Shown: in pieces, positions 3,092 through 30,894 of the stretch | How positions within the stretch are numbered: the stretch's first letter is position 1 | How the letters are laid out: every line of letters starts with the position of its first letter | Origin: a virus | Lineage: Duplodnaviria > Caudoviricetes | Length of the DNA: 64,000 bases | Direction: 5' to 3' (one strand) | IMG/VR virus record: IMGVR_UViG_3300037400_005963 | Span: 92,521 to 156,520 of that record | The notes under the pieces: model-generated | The model's input: the letters and a program-made list of their open reading frames with translations, nothing else | Database searches by the model: none | What the model was told of the DNA's origin: nothing | Program-made: the position numbers and the translations under genes

Positions 3092-3104
3092 CCCTTATAT
3101 ATAG
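3092..3104 (+). promoter_or_regulatory. Putative phage promoter motif CCCTTATATATAG (representative copy)
   Basis: YCTTATA..TG/AG recurs upstream of nearly every transcription unit on both strands. Confidence 0.7.
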
Positions 3105-12213: not shown

Positions 12214-13170
12214 ATGGAGGAGAACAAAAACAACATGAAAAACGAGGGAAAGAAAAATTCTAAACCTCGTAAGCCCAATAATGATCTTGGAATCATGAGG
12301 GTATTGTGGGCCATATTTAATATGATGGCTCGAAAAAGAGATCGGTTTCACCTGTTGAAACCAGAGGAGTTGGATACAATTTCTAACTCACTAGATCTTT
12401 GTGAATGTCAACGACTTCGTAAATCAATTGTTGAAGATCACTATTTTAAGAAACTGAAAAAATTGGACATACCTGTTCCAAAACTAATTCTTGAACCCAT
12501 TCAGGGGTCTCGAAGAACCAAATTGGGCATTGAGGATGATCCAGTAAAAATTTTGAAGGAGATACATAAATATGTTTCGGTTAAATATCCTAATGAAAAT
12601 TGGGTACTCCCCGAAGACATCGTTATCTTCGACAAAAAAGAAGAAGAAAAGGTAGAGGAAAATAAGCCAACTGTAAAGGAGGCCAATATTACTGCCAAAC
12701 GACCTTTCGGTCGAAAACAATTTGCGATAGCCGCACTTCTTAGTGAATTGGGACCAAAGTCGCAAAAAGAAATCGGTGAGTTTTTATTCTATAGTGTTAA
12801 CTTTTGTTTTAATAGGTTATCACCAGAAGACTTAAATTACCGAGAGTTCAAGGTTCTTTCCGATGGAAGGATTAAATTTGTGGGAGAGTTAGAGAATCTT
12901 CCCTACAATCCTAAAAACATCATTGAAGAACCGTGGTGGATTTCAGATCCAGCTAAAATAAAAGTATTTGAGAAATATTTCCGTGTTCAACGTGAGAGGG
13001 TTGAAAATATTATTATCATCCATCGTGATGATAGTATTAGAACTCGACGAATTCTTGCAAAAATAATTGATTCTTCCGATTATCCAATCGGAAAGCCAAA
13101 TCTGGCTAATGAATTGAAGGCTGGACTAGTCGACTGTATCTTAATTGATGCAGAAGAGCTTCTAAAATAA
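12214..13170 (+). CDS. Hypothetical protein
   Basis: 318 aa ORF followed by a terminator. Confidence 0.7.
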   Translation: MEENKNNMKNEGKKNSKPRKPNNDLGIMRVLWAIFNMMARKRDRFHLLKPEELDTISNSLDLCECQRLRKSIVEDHYFKKLKKLDIPVPKLILEPIQGSRRTKLGIEDDPVKILKEIHKYVSVKYPNENWVLPEDIVIFDKKEEEKVEENKPTVKEANITAKRPFGRKQFAIAALLSELGPKSQKEIGEFLFYSVNFCFNRLSPEDLNYREFKVLSDGRIKFVGELENLPYNPKNIIEEPWWISDPAKIKVFEKYFRVQRERVENIIIIHRDDSIRTRRILAKIIDSSDYPIGKPNLANELKAGLVDCILIDAEELLK

Positions 13171-13303
13171 TAGGATTTTCAAATACTAGAAAGAAAGGGG
13201 ACAATTCCCTTTTCTTTTTGGCCCGGAATTTAAAACGCCTTTATTTCCTTATATATGTGATAGTTAAAAAAAATATTAACAAACAAATTTTTAAACAAAC
13301 ACT

Positions 13304-24318: not shown

Positions 24319-25839
24319 TTAGAATGATTTAATCTCAGCTGTCGATTCAACAAGAGCGGCCTGAGTTTTCATCAGTAATCTCTTAATAGTCTTTATCTTA
24401 AATAAAACTTTTCTGAGCTTTATATGGGTATTAGTAACAGAATCTTTGGCAGTTCTATCATAACCACGCTTTGGATCATTAACGAGACTATCTACTTCTG
24501 TTGCTAATGTTGCAATTAAATTCCAGTAAACGACATCACCTGCATATTGTTCTACAGTAACTGGACAAACTGATTCAGCTGATGCATCTGGATTAACTTT
24601 GTACTTAGAGATTCTCTGAGAAGATTTAATTAAGCAACCGTTAATTTTGCTTACTAAATCAGAATCAATAGGTCTCTCTATACTCTTTAATTCACCATCT
24701 GATTTAAGCTCGTTTAATTTATTGATGACTGCATTAAGAACTGGTGCTTCTAATACGGTAGAATCACTTACAATATTATCCTTGAAGAAATTCTCGTACT
24801 CGGGAAGTTTATTATTATTCATTTTCTCAATGTCTCCAATCACCTCAGCCATAGAATCATAGTAATCCTTAGCTACTCTAGATTTCTTTACTTCACCGTT
24901 ATCGTCTCTACTAAGTGCTAGTCCAACAAGACCATTAACCATGTTCAAGTAGTTCTTAGAAATGATTCCATCTTTTCCGAAACAGATGAATGAAGCAACA
25001 GTAACGTCACGTAAATAGTTCAGAGTACGATATGTAATGAATCCGGGTAAGGTTTCATCACCATCCAAGTCTGAGTATATATTAGACAATTCAGTAACTT
25101 TTGGATTGAATACTTTATCACCAGATGTCATAAGTTGTTCCGTTACTAACTTAATCTGTCTTTCGATATATTCTCCGATTTTATCTACGTTCTCCTTAGT
25201 ATATTCCTTTTCCTGTTCGTCCATTTCCTTCATGGCCTTTATCAAAGTATCTTTCAGGTCCTTTCTATTTCCACTAATAGAACCAGTATACTTGCAAAGG
25301 AACATGTCTAAGTCATTCTTTTCAGGCACAATGTTATAAATACAAAATCTATTCATCAATGGTGGAAGCATTATCATTGAATTGCTCAGGTTATTAGCAT
25401 AGTTACCCGCTGATACAATCAATGTGCTCTCTGGTAATCTTTCTCGACCTACCATTCTCTCAAACACCAGATGAAGAAGTGCTGCCTGAACGTAGTCATT
25501 CGCAGTTGTAATCTCATCCAAGAACAAAAGACTCTTCTTTCCCTTTGCGTCATTATCCAAGATATCCTGGAACCAATCTGGACGTAATCTAATTGTAGAT
25601 CTATCGACTGATGTATCCGTTGGTGCAATTGGATAACCGAGAATACTTTCGGGACTCTCAGAGTTACCTCTTACCAAGATCAATTCATATCCTCTTACCT
25701 CAGAGAATAATTCAACTGTCTTAGTCTTACCAATACCTGGATTACCTACTAACATAAAGGGACATTCATCCTTTACTTTCTCTGCCACTTTCAACGCGGC
25801 AAAAATTTGCATGTTAATTGAATTGTTCAAATTTGCCAT
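24319..25839 (-). CDS. MoxR/dynein-related AAA+ ATPase
   Basis: Walker A GNPGIGKT, Walker B LFLDE, VQAALL, SAGN, PPLMNRF. Confidence 0.88.
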   Translation of the reverse strand: MANLNNSINMQIFAALKVAEKVKDECPFMLVGNPGIGKTKTVELFSEVRGYELILVRGNSESPESILGYPIAPTDTSVDRSTIRLRPDWFQDILDNDAKGKKSLLFLDEITTANDYVQAALLHLVFERMVGRERLPESTLIVSAGNYANNLSNSMIMLPPLMNRFCIYNIVPEKNDLDMFLCKYTGSISGNRKDLKDTLIKAMKEMDEQEKEYTKENVDKIGEYIERQIKLVTEQLMTSGDKVFNPKVTELSNIYSDLDGDETLPGFITYRTLNYLRDVTVASFICFGKDGIISKNYLNMVNGLVGLALSRDDNGEVKKSRVAKDYYDSMAEVIGDIEKMNNNKLPEYENFFKDNIVSDSTVLEAPVLNAVINKLNELKSDGELKSIERPIDSDLVSKINGCLIKSSQRISKYKVNPDASAESVCPVTVEQYAGDVVYWNLIATLATEVDSLVNDPKRGYDRTAKDSVTNTHIKLRKVLFKIKTIKRLLMKTQAALVESTAEIKSF

Positions 25840-25911
25840 TTTTCTTTAATTAAATTTTAAACATTATCAACTATAAGATTTTAAGGGGGATTAGAAATTA
25901 CTTTTAAATAT

Positions 25912-26044
25912 TTAAAAAAGTCGGAGATTTAGCTAAGAGTAGTTCAAGAATAAATAATTATTCAAGTGCACCTAACCACTCTTAACGTATCTCCTAGATA
26001 TTCTAAAAATGAATATCGAATCCGCACTATAGCGAAATTCCTCA
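25912..26044 (-). ncRNA. Candidate structured small RNA (long imperfect hairpin)
   Basis: - strand promoter motif at ~26044-26055; hairpin GGAGAT..TAAGAGTGGTT..AACTACTCTTAG..ATCTCC (25923-25994) followed by a U-run. Confidence 0.4.
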
Positions 26045-26170
26045 CATATAAGGAAACATTCAACCATTTAGAGGTGAATTGTGGATTTGAAATGGAAGAA
26101 AATCAGATAAAGTCCTATGTATCACCTTATTAGTAATAATATATAATTTCAAAACACAATAATATAAATA

Positions 26171-26935
26171 ATGAAGGAAGATGAGTTAAAAAAAGATGGC
26201 GCTACTATTTATTGTATAATACAGCTAGCCTTTATTAATAATGTATTTCCAGACCTTTTTCATGAACTACAGAAAATTTCAGATAAAACTGAAGATTTAG
26301 ATAAGAGTGTAGATCAAGTAGATGAGATGACTAATTCTGCTATGTCTGAAGTTTGTTTAGTAATGAAGTGGGGGAAAACCTTTTGTTTTTATGGTAGTAA
26401 GGGAAAAGCCGGAAGAACGAAAGCTTATGATACAAATTGTGGTGATTATAAGCCTGCTGCAGTTTTTAGCAGTTTAGATTCTAGAATAGAAGGAAAAATT
26501 CATAAAATATTAAGCGAACATCAACGTTCTGGTATTTTATACGGGAAAGGAATGATATTAGGAGAAAAAGTTGAATTTTACAATGTAAACAAAAGTCTTT
26601 GGAGATTTTTGATTTATTTGATTAGAATATATAATAAAGGGAAAGGAAGAAAAGACTTAATGTCGTTCATTGACAATGTTTATAATGTATACGAAGCTTT
26701 TTCATATGAACCGGGAATAAAATTAAGTCTAGATTGTGCAGGAATTAAACTATCCAGCATTAGCGATGAATGTCTAAACGGTTGTATTAATATTAGAAAG
26801 AGAGCTCTTAAGATTATTGAAAAAATTCCAGGAGTAATGTCAAAGGTAGAAAATTGTATCAAAGAAGAAATTAAACTATGCGATGAAGAATCAAATAGGA
26901 GACAGATAAATAAACAAAAGGAGATTACTGATTAA
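26171..26935 (+). CDS. Hypothetical protein, possible T5orf172/GIY-YIG-like domain
   Basis: GRTKAYDTN, IEGKIHKIL, EFYNV resemble the T5orf172 pattern. Confidence 0.45.
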   Translation: MKEDELKKDGATIYCIIQLAFINNVFPDLFHELQKISDKTEDLDKSVDQVDEMTNSAMSEVCLVMKWGKTFCFYGSKGKAGRTKAYDTNCGDYKPAAVFSSLDSRIEGKIHKILSEHQRSGILYGKGMILGEKVEFYNVNKSLWRFLIYLIRIYNKGKGRKDLMSFIDNVYNVYEAFSYEPGIKLSLDCAGIKLSSISDECLNGCINIRKRALKIIEKIPGVMSKVENCIKEEIKLCDEESNRRQINKQKEITD

Positions 26936-26951: not shown

Positions 26952-27074
26952 TTAAATCCTTCGCCTAGTGAAGTAGTTCTCAACTGGTAATACTAGTATT
27001 CGATATAGTATTACAACTATTATAAAGATCGGAACTAATATCATTAATAGAAGTATAATCGGTACTTTCTTCAT
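26952..27074 (-). CDS. Small membrane peptide (40 aa)
   Basis: MKKVPIILLLMILVPIFIIVVILYRILVLP..., ATGA-coupled to 27071-27316. Confidence 0.5.
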   Translation of the reverse strand: MKKVPIILLLMILVPIFIIVVILYRILVLPVENYFTRRRI

Positions 27075-27316
27075 ATTCCTTCATTAGTATCGCCTAAGCA
27101 ATAACTCTTTTCTTGTTTATTAAGTTCTCTTAAGATTTTAATAGAATCTAATCGATCTTGCTGTTTTCTTCGAAATTCCCTATATTCTTGTATTCCGATA
27201 GTTTTTTCAATAGTGTCATTATTACATTCAGTAATAGCACAATTGGTCTCGCGTTGTTCACAGTTGCAAGAAATGCAAATCAATAATAAAATAGTAAAAA
27301 TAATTGTCTTTTTCAT
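27071..27316 (-). CDS. Small putative lipoprotein
   Basis: MKKTIIFTILLLICISC signal/lipobox. Confidence 0.6.
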   Translation of the reverse strand: MKKTIIFTILLLICISCNCEQRETNCAITECNNDTIEKTIGIQEYREFRRKQQDRLDSIKILRELNKQEKSYCLGDTNEGI

Positions 27317-27411
27317 GTCTTTAAATTTTTGTTATCTTATTTATATATATAAGGGGATATCGGGCTAAATTATTTTTCCGTCCATATTTAACATAATACC
27401 CTTATATATAG

Positions 27412-28000
27412 ATAGATAAGTATATTAATATTTATCTGATCCACGTATCTGAAACGAATGATACTAACTTATATAAGCATACTAAAGGTGACTTGCGGGA
27501 ACTTATATAAGGACAGCTGATTAAGGTGGAAATCAGGTTCGTTTGGGCGAACAGAAAATAGGCAAGTGCGTATAAAGAATTTAGTTATGGAGAATTATAC
27601 GTATAGGCCCAAAGCGTTAAAGGTTATGGAGACAAATTATTAGAGGCCCAGAATGCAACTAAACAATTATATTTATATATGTTGCATAGGGCTTTATATA
27701 AAAATAAATAAATAAAAATAAACAGTTAAATTCGGAGAGAATTTAACATCGGCAATATGCGAAGAGGTGAAGAACTTCTTAGTGCAGTGCCAAAACCGAA
27801 GTAACTTAGATATCTAGGTGAACTTTGAAATGAGATTGATGAATTAACTGTATTATTCACTTTCTCAGAGTAGGAGGTCGGCGATATTTAGGGAGAAGAA
27901 ATACAGCTTCTTATTATAGGAGAGTCTATATAGATCGAAGAGATACTTGCGAGGCCTATAATTAAATATCACAAATCCCAAGGAGAGAAACCTTAGGTAA
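27412..28000 (+). ncRNA. Candidate large structured non-coding RNA (~580 nt)
   Basis: No ORF of 60 aa or more; promoter motif at 27399; many hairpins and long-range complementarity (TATAGGCC 27602 / GGCCTATA 27953). Confidence 0.55.
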
Positions 28001-28042
28001 TATAAACTTTTATGAGACAATAACAAAAAAAAAACAATAACT

Positions 28043-28219
28043 ATGAAAAATTTTAAACTTTACCAAGCGATTTGCTTGGTGCTGATGGCGGTATTTTATA
28101 TTGCCGCAGTGTGGTCACATAATGAAGTGGCTACAAATATTGATTTAGCCCTTTTCGGGGCTTCATTCGCAGGCGTAATTACCTGCCAAATCCTCAAATA
28201 TAAAAAGAGGATTTCTTAA
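28043..28219 (+). CDS. Small two-TM membrane protein (58 aa)
   Basis: MKNFKLYQAICLVLMAVFYIAAVWSHNEVATNIDLALFGASFAGVITCQILKYKKRIS; A-rich leader. Confidence 0.6.
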   Translation: MKNFKLYQAICLVLMAVFYIAAVWSHNEVATNIDLALFGASFAGVITCQILKYKKRIS

Positions 28220-28455
28220 AAAAAACAACGGGTCTCCATACGTAAGTGTGGGGCCCGTATCTTAACAACCTTTATAACACGTAACCTAAGAGGAATAAAA
28301 TAACTTTTAGAACACAGGATTACCGGAGAGCGCTGCTCAAGACCGGTGCTCCCGCCCGTGTGAAGATATTGATACATTTACTGTATCTTTATTTTTTCAG
28401 TTTTCTAAGTACTTACTCCCTTATAATTGTAGAATTATAAAAATAATAATATATA

Positions 28456-28824
28456 ATGAAAAGAAATAAGTTAGATAATTTAATTGCGAAGTTGGTGAAA
28501 GAATTAGAGGCTTCGGAAGAATATCAAGATTTCAAAGAAGAAGTTTATGATACTTTGAAAAAAACGGTGGAAGAATATAGGGAAGGATCAAACGATACAA
28601 TTGAGGAGATGTATGAAGAAATCTCATATCCGCCAATAGAAAGTATAAATTCATATGCTCAATCACTTACGGGTTTACTAGTTAAAGAAAATATATTAGA
28701 CCCAAATAAACTAACAGATGAAGATAGAATGTATATTTCAGATCAGATTGCTTTATATTGGATAGAGGTAAGAAAAGAAATGTGCAAAAAAATCTTGGGA
28801 ATAAAAAAGAAAGGTGGAAATTAA
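28456..28824 (+). CDS. Hypothetical protein
   Basis: 122 aa; promoter motif at 28418. Confidence 0.65.
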   Translation: MKRNKLDNLIAKLVKELEASEEYQDFKEEVYDTLKKTVEEYREGSNDTIEEMYEEISYPPIESINSYAQSLTGLLVKENILDPNKLTDEDRMYISDQIALYWIEVRKEMCKKILGIKKKGGN

Positions 28825-29113: not shown

Positions 29114-30118
29114 TTATCTTACTACAACCGTTACGATTTGATGTCCAGTTGCTCCAAGACCTTCTGTAGATCCAATAGTTATTCCGCGATTATACAAATA
29201 ATCTGCAACAGCTTGAGCTCGTTCATTAGAGATTCTATCATTAGCTGCATCTGTACCGGGATAACTAGCTTCACCCTTAATATCAACTACTACATTAGTT
29301 GGAATCTGATCCAATACGTTCATAGCTGCATTATCAAGGGTAGATTTGCCGTAATCAAATGCAACAACATATGTTTTGATGGGTGCTTCGATCACACGAT
29401 CCTTGTAAACAATCTTCTCTACTACTTGAGTAATAGTTTCAGGCTGTCTACTGCGGAGCTCATTTATCTGAGCATTTAGAAGATCTACTTCCTCTTGTGT
29501 ATATTTATAGGGGCAAAGCTTAAACTCCTTGCCAAACTTATAACTAACACCAGCCATCAATCCATACCAAGCATTTCTAGAATCAAATCTTGGATAGGCG
29601 CCTGTTCTAGTACGAGTTAAGTTATAATTCAACTCTGGCACAATGTTAAGTTGGAATTTTGGAGTTAAATTAATATTAAACTCAAGTTGCATCTTAGTAG
29701 ATAGATCATTAGTTGGATGTTCTGAATAAAATCCATGTACCCAACCCGGTCCTACTGCTGCAACAACCTCGAACTTATCAGGGGTTCCTCGGAAACCATG
29801 AAATAGGTTGTTAAAATTTAACTTAGCTAAGGCGGAAACATTTACAAAGTTAACTACATGACCAGTCTGGAATGCACCATACTTTGATCCATTTTCCCAA
29901 CCCATAGTACCATCAATTGCAACTCCAAAAGTAGGAGTAATCCAATGTGCATATTGCAATGAGGTTCCAGCTTGGATAGTGTGTCCCCAGTCTTCATAAC
30001 CATTACAACCTGGGTGCATTAATGCAGTTACACCACCCTTAAGTGTTACTACTTCTTCTGCTCTTGCCATAGTAAACATGCTAACTAAGGCAATCAAACA
30101 TAAAATAAACTTTTTCAT
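29114..30118 (-). CDS. OmpA family outer-membrane protein (Bacteroidota type)
   Basis: Signal peptide, beta-barrel region, NAQINELR linker, C-terminal FDYGKSTL...NDRISNERAQAVADYL. Confidence 0.85.
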   Translation of the reverse strand: MKKFILCLIALVSMFTMARAEEVVTLKGGVTALMHPGCNGYEDWGHTIQAGTSLQYAHWITPTFGVAIDGTMGWENGSKYGAFQTGHVVNFVNVSALAKLNFNNLFHGFRGTPDKFEVVAAVGPGWVHGFYSEHPTNDLSTKMQLEFNINLTPKFQLNIVPELNYNLTRTRTGAYPRFDSRNAWYGLMAGVSYKFGKEFKLCPYKYTQEEVDLLNAQINELRSRQPETITQVVEKIVYKDRVIEAPIKTYVVAFDYGKSTLDNAAMNVLDQIPTNVVVDIKGEASYPGTDAANDRISNERAQAVADYLYNRGITIGSTEGLGATGHQIVTVVVR

Positions 30119-30144: not shown

Positions 30145-30894
30145 TTATAATAACTCTTCTATTAGGATATCAAGGTGTTTTCCACACCATTCTATTTCCT
30201 TCATGTATTTATCTATATATTGGGGTTTTAATTTTTCAGAATCTGTTAATATATAATCTTTATAAAACCTTTGTGGAATTTCTGATTTTAATGTAAAATA
30301 GAAACTACTATCTTTATTATCAGGATCATATATTTCCATACAGTTACATTCTACTGTATTATCACCCATAAATGTTTTCTTATTCATGACAAGGTTTCCG
30401 GACCATACGGGAGTTATTTTATCCAGATCCTTGTCATAAATTAGACATATACCGGAAAAAGTAGACTGAGGATTATCATACTCAAAAGACTTGGTTTTCA
30501 AATTATATTTTGTTCCGTTTACTTTCCAGGTAATTGCATCTATATCCACTACCATATTTTCTCTAAGATATAGAAATATATTACTTAGTCTTTTATTTTG
30601 TCTAATTAATTCTCCGATCGTTTCAAATTCGGGTCCCCATTCATCATCTTCAAATGTTAAAGGTGATAGGATTTTATATCTAGCTGCTCTATTAAATATA
30701 GACAATGAGGGATAAAGACTAGTTCCCGTGTGTCTTTGCAAACCCAGCAGACCAAGTAGATCTAATACATTCTTATCCACTTTACTAGTGTCCGTTCCTA
30801 GTTCATTCAGATAATGTTTTACAAAAGAACTATCTCTATAAGCTCTCCTCATGATGGGAAGCGCAACTTTCTCAAATAGATATTTTTTAATCAT
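30145..30894 (-). CDS. Phage protein, paralog of 5424-6206
   Basis: QRHTGTS, KILSPLTFEDDEW, QNKRLSNIF, DIDAITW. Confidence 0.7.
   Translation of the reverse strand: MIKKYLFEKVALPIMRRAYRDSSFVKHYLNELGTDTSKVDKNVLDLLGLLGLQRHTGTSLYPSLSIFNRAARYKILSPLTFEDDEWGPEFETIGELIRQNKRLSNIFLYLRENMVVDIDAITWKVNGTKYNLKTKSFEYDNPQSTFSGICLIYDKDLDKITPVWSGNLVMNKKTFMGDNTVECNCMEIYDPDNKDSSFYFTLKSEIPQRFYKDYILTDSEKLKPQYIDKYMKEIEWCGKHLDILIEELL

Follow-up and report, generated by a model that had tools for sequence, protein, structure and literature searches.

To our knowledge, the giant gut phages of Bacteroidota are abundant and almost unstudied at the RNA level. Long RNAs that have two functions and encode small membrane-active or other small peptides include S. 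aureus RNAIII/hld, psm-mec RNA and B. subtilis SR1/SR1P. Type I toxin mRNAs (hok, tisB, zorO, fst, bsrG) form another group, in which hok-type mRNAs carry a 5'–3' long-range helix that encloses the ORF. In phages, the lambda S gene with its sdi is a holin gene whose initiation is controlled by RNA structure. Dual-function RNAs of the RNAIII/hld type, type I toxin mRNAs and holin mRNAs appear, by analogy, to be the nearest working counterparts of the locus described here. The large RNAs ROOL, GOLLD and OLE each have a defining covariance model and a conserved fold of several domains (PMC12286853, PMC5737381). ROOL and GOLLD are often found near tRNA islands in phages and prophages, a location that is typical and not obligatory, and the partner of OLE RNA is the membrane protein OapA (PMC12286853).

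The locus is part of a 64,000-nt stretch of phage DNA (the window, to which all coordinates refer unless stated otherwise), which corresponds to bases 92521–156520 of a 156,520-nt record estimated to be ~42% complete. Positions 27317–28042 (726 nt) are the longest interval without an ATG-initiated ORF of at least 50 aa, in the window as in the whole record, and stay ORF-free under code 11, with TGA read as W (code 4), with TAG read as Q and with TAA read as Q. The initial annotation, which had described this interval as the largest non-coding gap, was correct in this, and all the sequence motifs it listed were recovered at their positions. It had also proposed membership of a class such as ROOL or GOLLD, or of a new one. 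The assignment to ROOL or GOLLD is contradicted by a cmscan search of the whole window against Rfam, in which no model reached its gathering score (0 matches). With lax filters and E ≤ 10, the region 27200–28300 returned noise only (snoR27, CrcZ over the A-rich sORF region, and Pistol with 16.8 bits against a cutoff of 34.5). ARAGORN found 0 tRNA genes in the 64-kb window.

The stretch resembles ROOL, GOLLD and OLE in being ~600 nt long, ORF-free, strongly folded and phage-encoded. It resembles OLE further in that a membrane protein is involved, here through a membrane-protein ORF that directly follows the stretch. Unlike these RNAs, it consists of a series of local hairpins, lacks a separate 3' end and is contiguous with the short ORF (sORF) downstream. 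The 58-aa product of this sORF, unlike the partner of OLE, shows no significant family match, and the OLE model does not match either. Since there is no match to an Rfam model, no tRNA in 64 kb and no long-range pairing above chance, the RNA is not ROOL, GOLLD or OLE. Our preferred reading, to which we assign a probability of roughly 50%, is that 27399–28397 is a single ~990-nt structured mRNA with a giant leader. A free RNA of 580 nt is a poorer reading of the stretch than the leader of a ~1-kb structured mRNA, because the stretch has no terminator of its own and runs into a conserved sORF within strong structure.

The gap had been called promoter-driven, and this description holds. The motif core CCCTTATATATAG (27399..27411, + strand) belongs to a recurrent promoter-like motif of this phage that is rich in T/C upstream and GA..AATTAA-like downstream. 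A PWM was built from copies of the CCCTTATATATAG-type motif and scanned over the whole record. It finds ~22 promoter-like sites in 156 kb, most of them 28–63 nt before a start codon. The site at 27399 (PWM score 32.0) is an outlier, its first ORF being reached only after 643 nt; transcription from it probably starts at about 27412–27420. A divergent copy of the promoter (27343..27354, − strand, PWM 37.5) is located 38 nt upstream of the ATG of an 81-aa gene. The PWM scan shows no further phage-type promoter site on either strand of 27420–28418. Over the whole record, the motif takes the form of a T/C-rich tract followed by ..A(C/T)CCTTATA(T/A)..GA..AATTAA (other sites are, e.g., at 3093, 4112, 9758, 13247 and 61719). 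These sites are usually directly preceded by a hairpin and a T-run, and such terminator–promoter modules separate the units of the phage.

The evidence for RNA structure consists of single-sequence statistics computed on the one DNA sequence of the locus. The ORF-free, hairpin-rich leader of ~630 nt (27412..28042, + strand) has an MFE of −150.0 kcal/mol, compared to −113.8 ± 6.3 kcal/mol for 100 dinucleotide shuffles (z −5.7). An earlier z of −15 for this stretch was inflated, having been derived from 20 shuffles only with a small standard deviation. Perfect local 7-mer stems (loop 3–40) number 15 versus 2.9 ± 2.2 in 500 dinucleotide shuffles, and local 8-mer stems number 7 versus 0.74, so that local stems overall are five- to ten-fold enriched. 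Perfect 8-mer complements at least 60 nt apart occur 5 times, with 4.9 ± 2.9 expected. The ornate structure proposed in the initial annotation is thus upheld for the local helices, which exceed chance, but not for the long-range and pseudoknot pairs. The two pairs given as examples of the latter, TATAGGCC/GGCCTATA and GTATCT/AGATAC, are present in their places but are no more than chance would produce. Because long-range complements are at the chance level, the terms ornate and pseudoknotted are unsupported, and the region is instead a chain of local hairpins.

The − strand of the same 27412–28042 stretch also beats its shuffles, as any set of inverted repeats would (−124.8 versus −99.7 ± 6.1 kcal/mol, 100 shuffles, z −4.1). 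The energy gain over shuffles is 36 kcal/mol on the + strand versus 25 kcal/mol on the − strand. A strand-symmetric stem finder identifies 20 stems in 27412–28400 (989 nt), whereas 52 background windows have a mean of 14.7 and a maximum of 19. The mismatches in these 20 stems comprise 16 G.T and 6 A.C (roughly p 0.03), a bias that is a modest sign of the + strand RNA being the folding strand. An RNA-level role is the best reading of the stretch, given that it is promoter-driven, non-coding, structured above chance and modestly biased towards the + strand.

The structure does not stop at 28000, where the initial annotation had placed the end of the element. There is no boundary at this position, and the signal continues to ~28400. 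Successive 300-nt windows of 27331–28530 have + strand z-scores of −2.2, −1.6, −2.7, −0.2, −2.25, −4.76 and −1.9. The peak, 28081–28380 (z −4.76), which ranks third of 2084 windows in a scan of the whole record, falls outside the originally annotated stretch. Region 28000–28400 has a z of −8.7 (100 shuffles), and the whole unit has a z of −11.3, obtained from 20 shuffles only. The partition function of the whole unit predicts ~34 helices with a pair probability of at least 0.7, comprising 253 bp of which 27 are G.U. Other top outliers of the 300-nt scan are found at ~81.4 kb of the record (G000:C1:81151-81900, window −11369 to −10619), where z is −4.1 to −5.7 on both strands, and at 12931–13230 on the + strand (z −4.6), just upstream of the promoter at 13247.

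The predicted helices of the leader, all from one sequence and all on the + strand, follow one another closely. At the presumed transcript start, a 5'-terminal hairpin (27414..27437) is made up of 10 bp including one G.U and closed by an AUUA loop (p at least 0.72). It is followed by a 10-bp hairpin (27468..27511, p at least 0.99) formed by two palindromic CUUAUAUAAG copies and enclosing a small AAG/CUU hairpin; this CUUAUAUAAG hairpin competes with the ACTTGC/GCAAGT helix suggested by the initial annotation. Two adjacent 6-bp hairpins, CUGAUU/AAUCAG and GUUCGU/GCGAAC (27517..27552), are predicted next by the partition function. Then comes an interrupted 13-bp hairpin (27561..27609) with a GCGUAUAA/UUAUACGU core and the first GUUAUGGAGA in its loop. 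Overlapping it is a direct repeat (27584..27650, repeat family D1) in which GTTATGGAGA, 11 nt and AGGCCCA occur twice with a spacing of 39 nt. The spacing is a multiple of three, and therefore both copies are in one reading frame. A putative micro-ORF of 18 codons, MENYTYRPKALKVMETNY (27587–27643, +), would have the 39-nt repeat in frame and span both GUUAUGGAGA copies, and a second putative micro-ORF of 20 codons starts at 27458. No partner complementary to GUUAUGGAGA is found in the record.

The distal half of the predicted leader begins with a long hairpin, AGGCCC..AUGCAAC/GUUGCAU..GGGCUU (27638..27700), which leads into an A-rich linker (27693–27724). A perfect 9-bp hairpin (27725..27747, p at least 0.99) displays a fully unpaired GGAGA loop, and three more hairpins are predicted by the partition function at 27751–27791, 27797–27827 and 27831–27867. 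The last leader domain is branched, closed by GAUAUUUA/UAAAUAUC (27873..27979), and contains inner hairpins at 27893–27912 and 27914–27961. Between it and the sORF lies an A-rich region (27998..28042) that is predicted to be open and resembles the A-rich leaders of other genes of the phage. The start region of the sORF (−30..+12) has a predicted mean unpaired probability of 0.81. The leader thus has no obvious masking of translation.

Purine-rich motifs are abundant. GGAGA occurs 6 times versus 1.1 expected, GGAG/GGUG-type 4-mers occur 23 times versus 8.7, and SD-like 5-mers occur 16 times versus 5.8 (dinucleotide shuffles). This enrichment of purine/SD-like motifs falls in the top ~1% of genome windows, for a motif that was picked after looking. 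Only 2–3 of 11 GGAG/GGUG sites are in open loops. A CsrB-like sponge was rejected, as most of the GGAG/GGUG motifs are stem-bound despite their enrichment, which is left as an unexplained observation.

The sORF (28043..28219, + strand) codes for a protein of 58 aa that has two hydrophobic helices and ends in a basic tail, KYKKRIS. Four other metagenomic variants are present in a set of 5.8 billion proteins, with identities of 93, 89, 88 and 76%. All are 58–59 aa long; substitutions in the helices are conservative, the loop varies, and one variant carries an additional Lys in frame. They are known from Logan/ENA assemblies, on contigs of 28.8, 0.8, 34.8 and 1.7 kb, and an identical protein is encoded on a contig of 202.7 kb. 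Judged by these five variants with their conservative changes, fixed length and in-frame indel, the sORF is a real gene. The protein has no significant match in Pfam, PHROG, NCBIfam or PADLOC. Six hairpins are predicted inside the coding sequence, whose MFE is −60.6; 300 permutations of its synonymous codons average −41.3 ± 4.2, and none is as low (z −4.65). The same permutation test applied to ten other small genes of the window gives z of +0.5 to −2.8. RNA structure in the coding sequence of the sORF exceeds what the protein sequence requires.

Downstream of the stop codon, the partition function predicts three 3' untranslated hairpins at 28228–28258, 28286–28310 and 28324–28354 (+ strand). 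A predicted long-range helix between 28260–28282 and 27614–27632 would enclose the sORF, and taken alone it is not above chance. Pair probabilities in this part are ~0.75–0.8. The unit ends with a probable terminator (28362..28397, + strand), a GAUACA/UGUAUC hairpin extended by A/U pairs and followed by a T-run; its stem is weak, with 2 G-C pairs. A consensus scan finds no + strand terminator in 27400–28043, the same scan having also missed the 28362–28397 hairpin. The next promoter-like motif, CCTTATAATTGTA (28419..28431, + strand, PWM 16.3), is located ~20 nt past this hairpin and 37 nt before a 122-aa gene (28456–28824), which reproduces the terminator–promoter layout of the other units of the phage. 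In this unit, such a module is present only at 28362–28431. A − strand ORF of 53 aa (28216–28377) looks spurious.

These features could be combined into one RNA, of which we infer the two ends, the continuity and the role of the leader. The phage-type promoter at 27399 would start an RNA with a terminal hairpin, which would then pass through ~630 nt of ORF-free serial hairpins and an open A-rich ribosome landing region before reaching the sORF. The RNA would next encode the conserved two-helix membrane protein of 58 aa in a coding sequence folded into six hairpins, and would end, after three more hairpins, at the hairpin and T-run of 28362–28397. The leader would accordingly belong to an mRNA that is compact, probably long-lived and codes for a small membrane protein, which may be holin- or toxin-like. 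Its dense hairpins, including the one at the 5' end, may protect the RNA against host nucleases, and they may also offer binding sites for a factor that sets the timing and amount of the membrane protein. Because the start region is predicted to be open, stabilization, factor binding or both are more plausible than a simple on/off fold. Several observations speak against this reading. A leader of 630 nt is ~10 times longer than every other leader of the phage, which stability alone hardly explains, the proposed terminator is weak, and the strand preference is modest.

Compared with its nearest counterparts, the unit resembles the dual-function RNAs in being a long hairpin-rich transcript with a promoter and terminator of its own and a short ORF embedded in structure. 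It is about twice the size of RNAIII and, unlike these RNAs, carries its ORF in the 3' third behind a 630-nt leader; it shows no homology to them. What the unit shares with the lambda S holin gene is RNA structure near a gene whose product is a small membrane protein with two helices and a basic C-terminus; here, however, no endolysin is recognized nearby, and the 630-nt structure leaves the start codon uncovered.

The ~630-nt stretch, or the whole ~1-kb RNA, might itself be a functional large RNA with a trans-acting or scaffolding role, either freed through processing or in the form of a dual-function RNA that also codes for the 58-aa protein. A length and hairpin density far beyond those of the phage's other leaders would agree with this, as would structure that continues through the coding sequence beyond coding needs, the enriched SD-like purine motifs, the internal 39-nt repeat and the precedent of OLE RNA, which works with the membrane protein OapA (PMC12286853). 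Yet no Rfam family matches, long-range pairing is at chance, most GGAG/GGUG motifs are in stems, the record offers no target for GUUAUGGAGA, the terminator scan points to no 3' end ahead of the sORF, and searches of two related giant phages yield no homologue. We regard such a role as possible but unlikely. In a bolder and rather doubtful version, 27412–28397 would represent a novel type of large phage RNA that does two things, a ~1-kb scaffold of ~30 hairpins that encodes the 58-aa protein and works with or beside it. The basic tail of the protein might, for example, anchor the RNA at the membrane in the way that OapA tethers OLE RNA, or the GGAG/GGUG elements might soak up a host RNA-binding factor. 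The idea of a new large RNA is less likely than that of a giant structured leader on the mRNA of a small membrane protein.

A DNA-level function (origin of replication, packaging site, or control region bound by proteins between the divergent promoters) is improbable, and so is a decaying spacer with no function. The stretch does adjoin the divergent promoters at 27354 (−) and 27400 (+), contains an AT-rich tract (27693–27724) and many inverted repeats with a − strand z of −4.1, and the locus is absent in the relatives G002 and G003. However, its repeats occur in two copies only and form no iteron-like arrays, one strand is favoured by the excess of G.T over A.C mismatches and by its larger energy gain, and the structure runs through an expressed-looking sORF to the terminator, which a DNA site does not need. 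A spacer would moreover be the largest gap of an otherwise tightly packed phage. A module of the type I toxin–antitoxin kind, in which the 58-aa protein is a membrane toxin and its compact mRNA is held inactive and stable under the control of an antisense RNA, is very improbable. The likeness to type I toxin mRNAs consists of a hydrophobic protein of <60 aa with two hydrophobic segments and a basic tail, a very compact and stable-looking mRNA, coding sequence included, and a predicted 5'–3' closing helix that encloses the ORF. That helix is not above chance, though, the start region is predicted to be open rather than masked, and the PWM scan finds no antisense promoter of the phage type on the − strand of 27420–28418. 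The leader is also several times longer than those of the type I toxins we know of.

If the reading as one structured mRNA is true, this would be the longest structured leader known to us in a phage of this group and a clear case of RNA structure selected inside the ORF of a small membrane protein. Leader and structured ORF would together point to tight post-transcriptional control, or high stability, of a potentially lethal membrane protein. Should the leader instead be a stable, independent RNA, the very short list of large structured RNAs from phages would gain a new member. A unit this rich in hairpins is unusual for a phage.

The record encodes GroEL, a Dda-like helicase, ligases and other functions. 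Its nearest relatives among the genomes compared are G003 (362,675 nt, 92% complete, with a GroEL 63% identical) and G002 (a 122-kb fragment). The 'Jug' jumbo gut phages of Bacteroides/Phocaeicola have genomes of 360–402 kb, and the paper that describes them makes no mention of non-coding RNAs or origins (PMC12880540). Synteny with G003 ends after an ATPase gene (24319–25839), and genes from 26171 to ~31000 have no counterpart there. In G002 the locus is absent as well, with the synteny break right after the ATPase gene. The part of this giant gut phage that holds the stretch is a variable, accessory region.

A blastn search of the stretch against 50,697 phage records gave no match, and blastn and nhmmer searches against G001, G002 and G003 gave matches to promoters or A-rich leaders only. 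No relative carrying the locus was found in IMG/VR, JGI metagenomes or GTDB genomes with a neighbouring 254-aa protein and its alignment, the ATPase or the sORF alignment as queries; neither the sORF nor the 254-aa neighbour has a relative in these three collections. A spurious 53-aa frame of the leader has no match in the 5.8-billion-protein set. Several candidate relatives were rejected. L006 and L045 are unrelated, each with one chance match in the scans of IMG/VR for promoter- and repeat-motif patterns. L003 encodes a 45%-identical homologue of a neighbouring 334-aa protein but shows neither synteny nor the gap. A 612-nt ORF-free gap in G002, near the homologue of the same 334-aa protein, is a tRNA cluster (L018 10069–10404, G002:C1:80068-80403) comprising Leu-TAA, Leu-TAG, Gln-TTG and Cys-GCA tRNAs.

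Several proteins encoded around the stretch have recognizable features. A 249-aa protein (30145–30894, − strand) hits the Pfam family Tad3 of type I Thoeris inhibitors (51.3 bits versus a cutoff of 27, E 1.2e-13). The variable region thus also holds a Tad3-like gene, similar to one that counteracts the Thoeris defence against phages, and this match suggests that the region around the stretch is an anti-defence/accessory island. The 334-aa protein (29114–30118, − strand) contains a C-terminal domain of the OmpA family (peptidoglycan-binding, E 7.7e-9); its relatives are 45% identical in IMGVR_UViG_3300028886_000055 (L003) and ~30% identical in G002. The 81-aa protein expressed from the divergent promoter (27071–27316, − strand) has a lipoprotein-like N-terminus (hydrophobic, ...ISC), and the rest of it is charged and probably helical. 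Taken with the two-helix sORF, this protein might point to a module of the lysis type or one directed at the envelope.

Long ORF-free intervals are also present in G003. Positions 72846–74325 (G003:C1:72846-74325, L022) comprise 1.48 kb without an ORF of at least 50 aa and are unrelated in sequence to the stretch. Six of its eight 300-nt windows have z-scores of −1.7 to −3.1 on the + strand, with the − strand mostly near 0, which makes it a candidate long structured RNA. Four further ORF-free intervals (G003:C1:646-1284, 25643-26763, 182562-183372 and 309176-309818) each contain a 300-nt window whose two strands both have z-scores of −6 to −7.5, a pattern suggestive of long, near-perfect inverted repeats.
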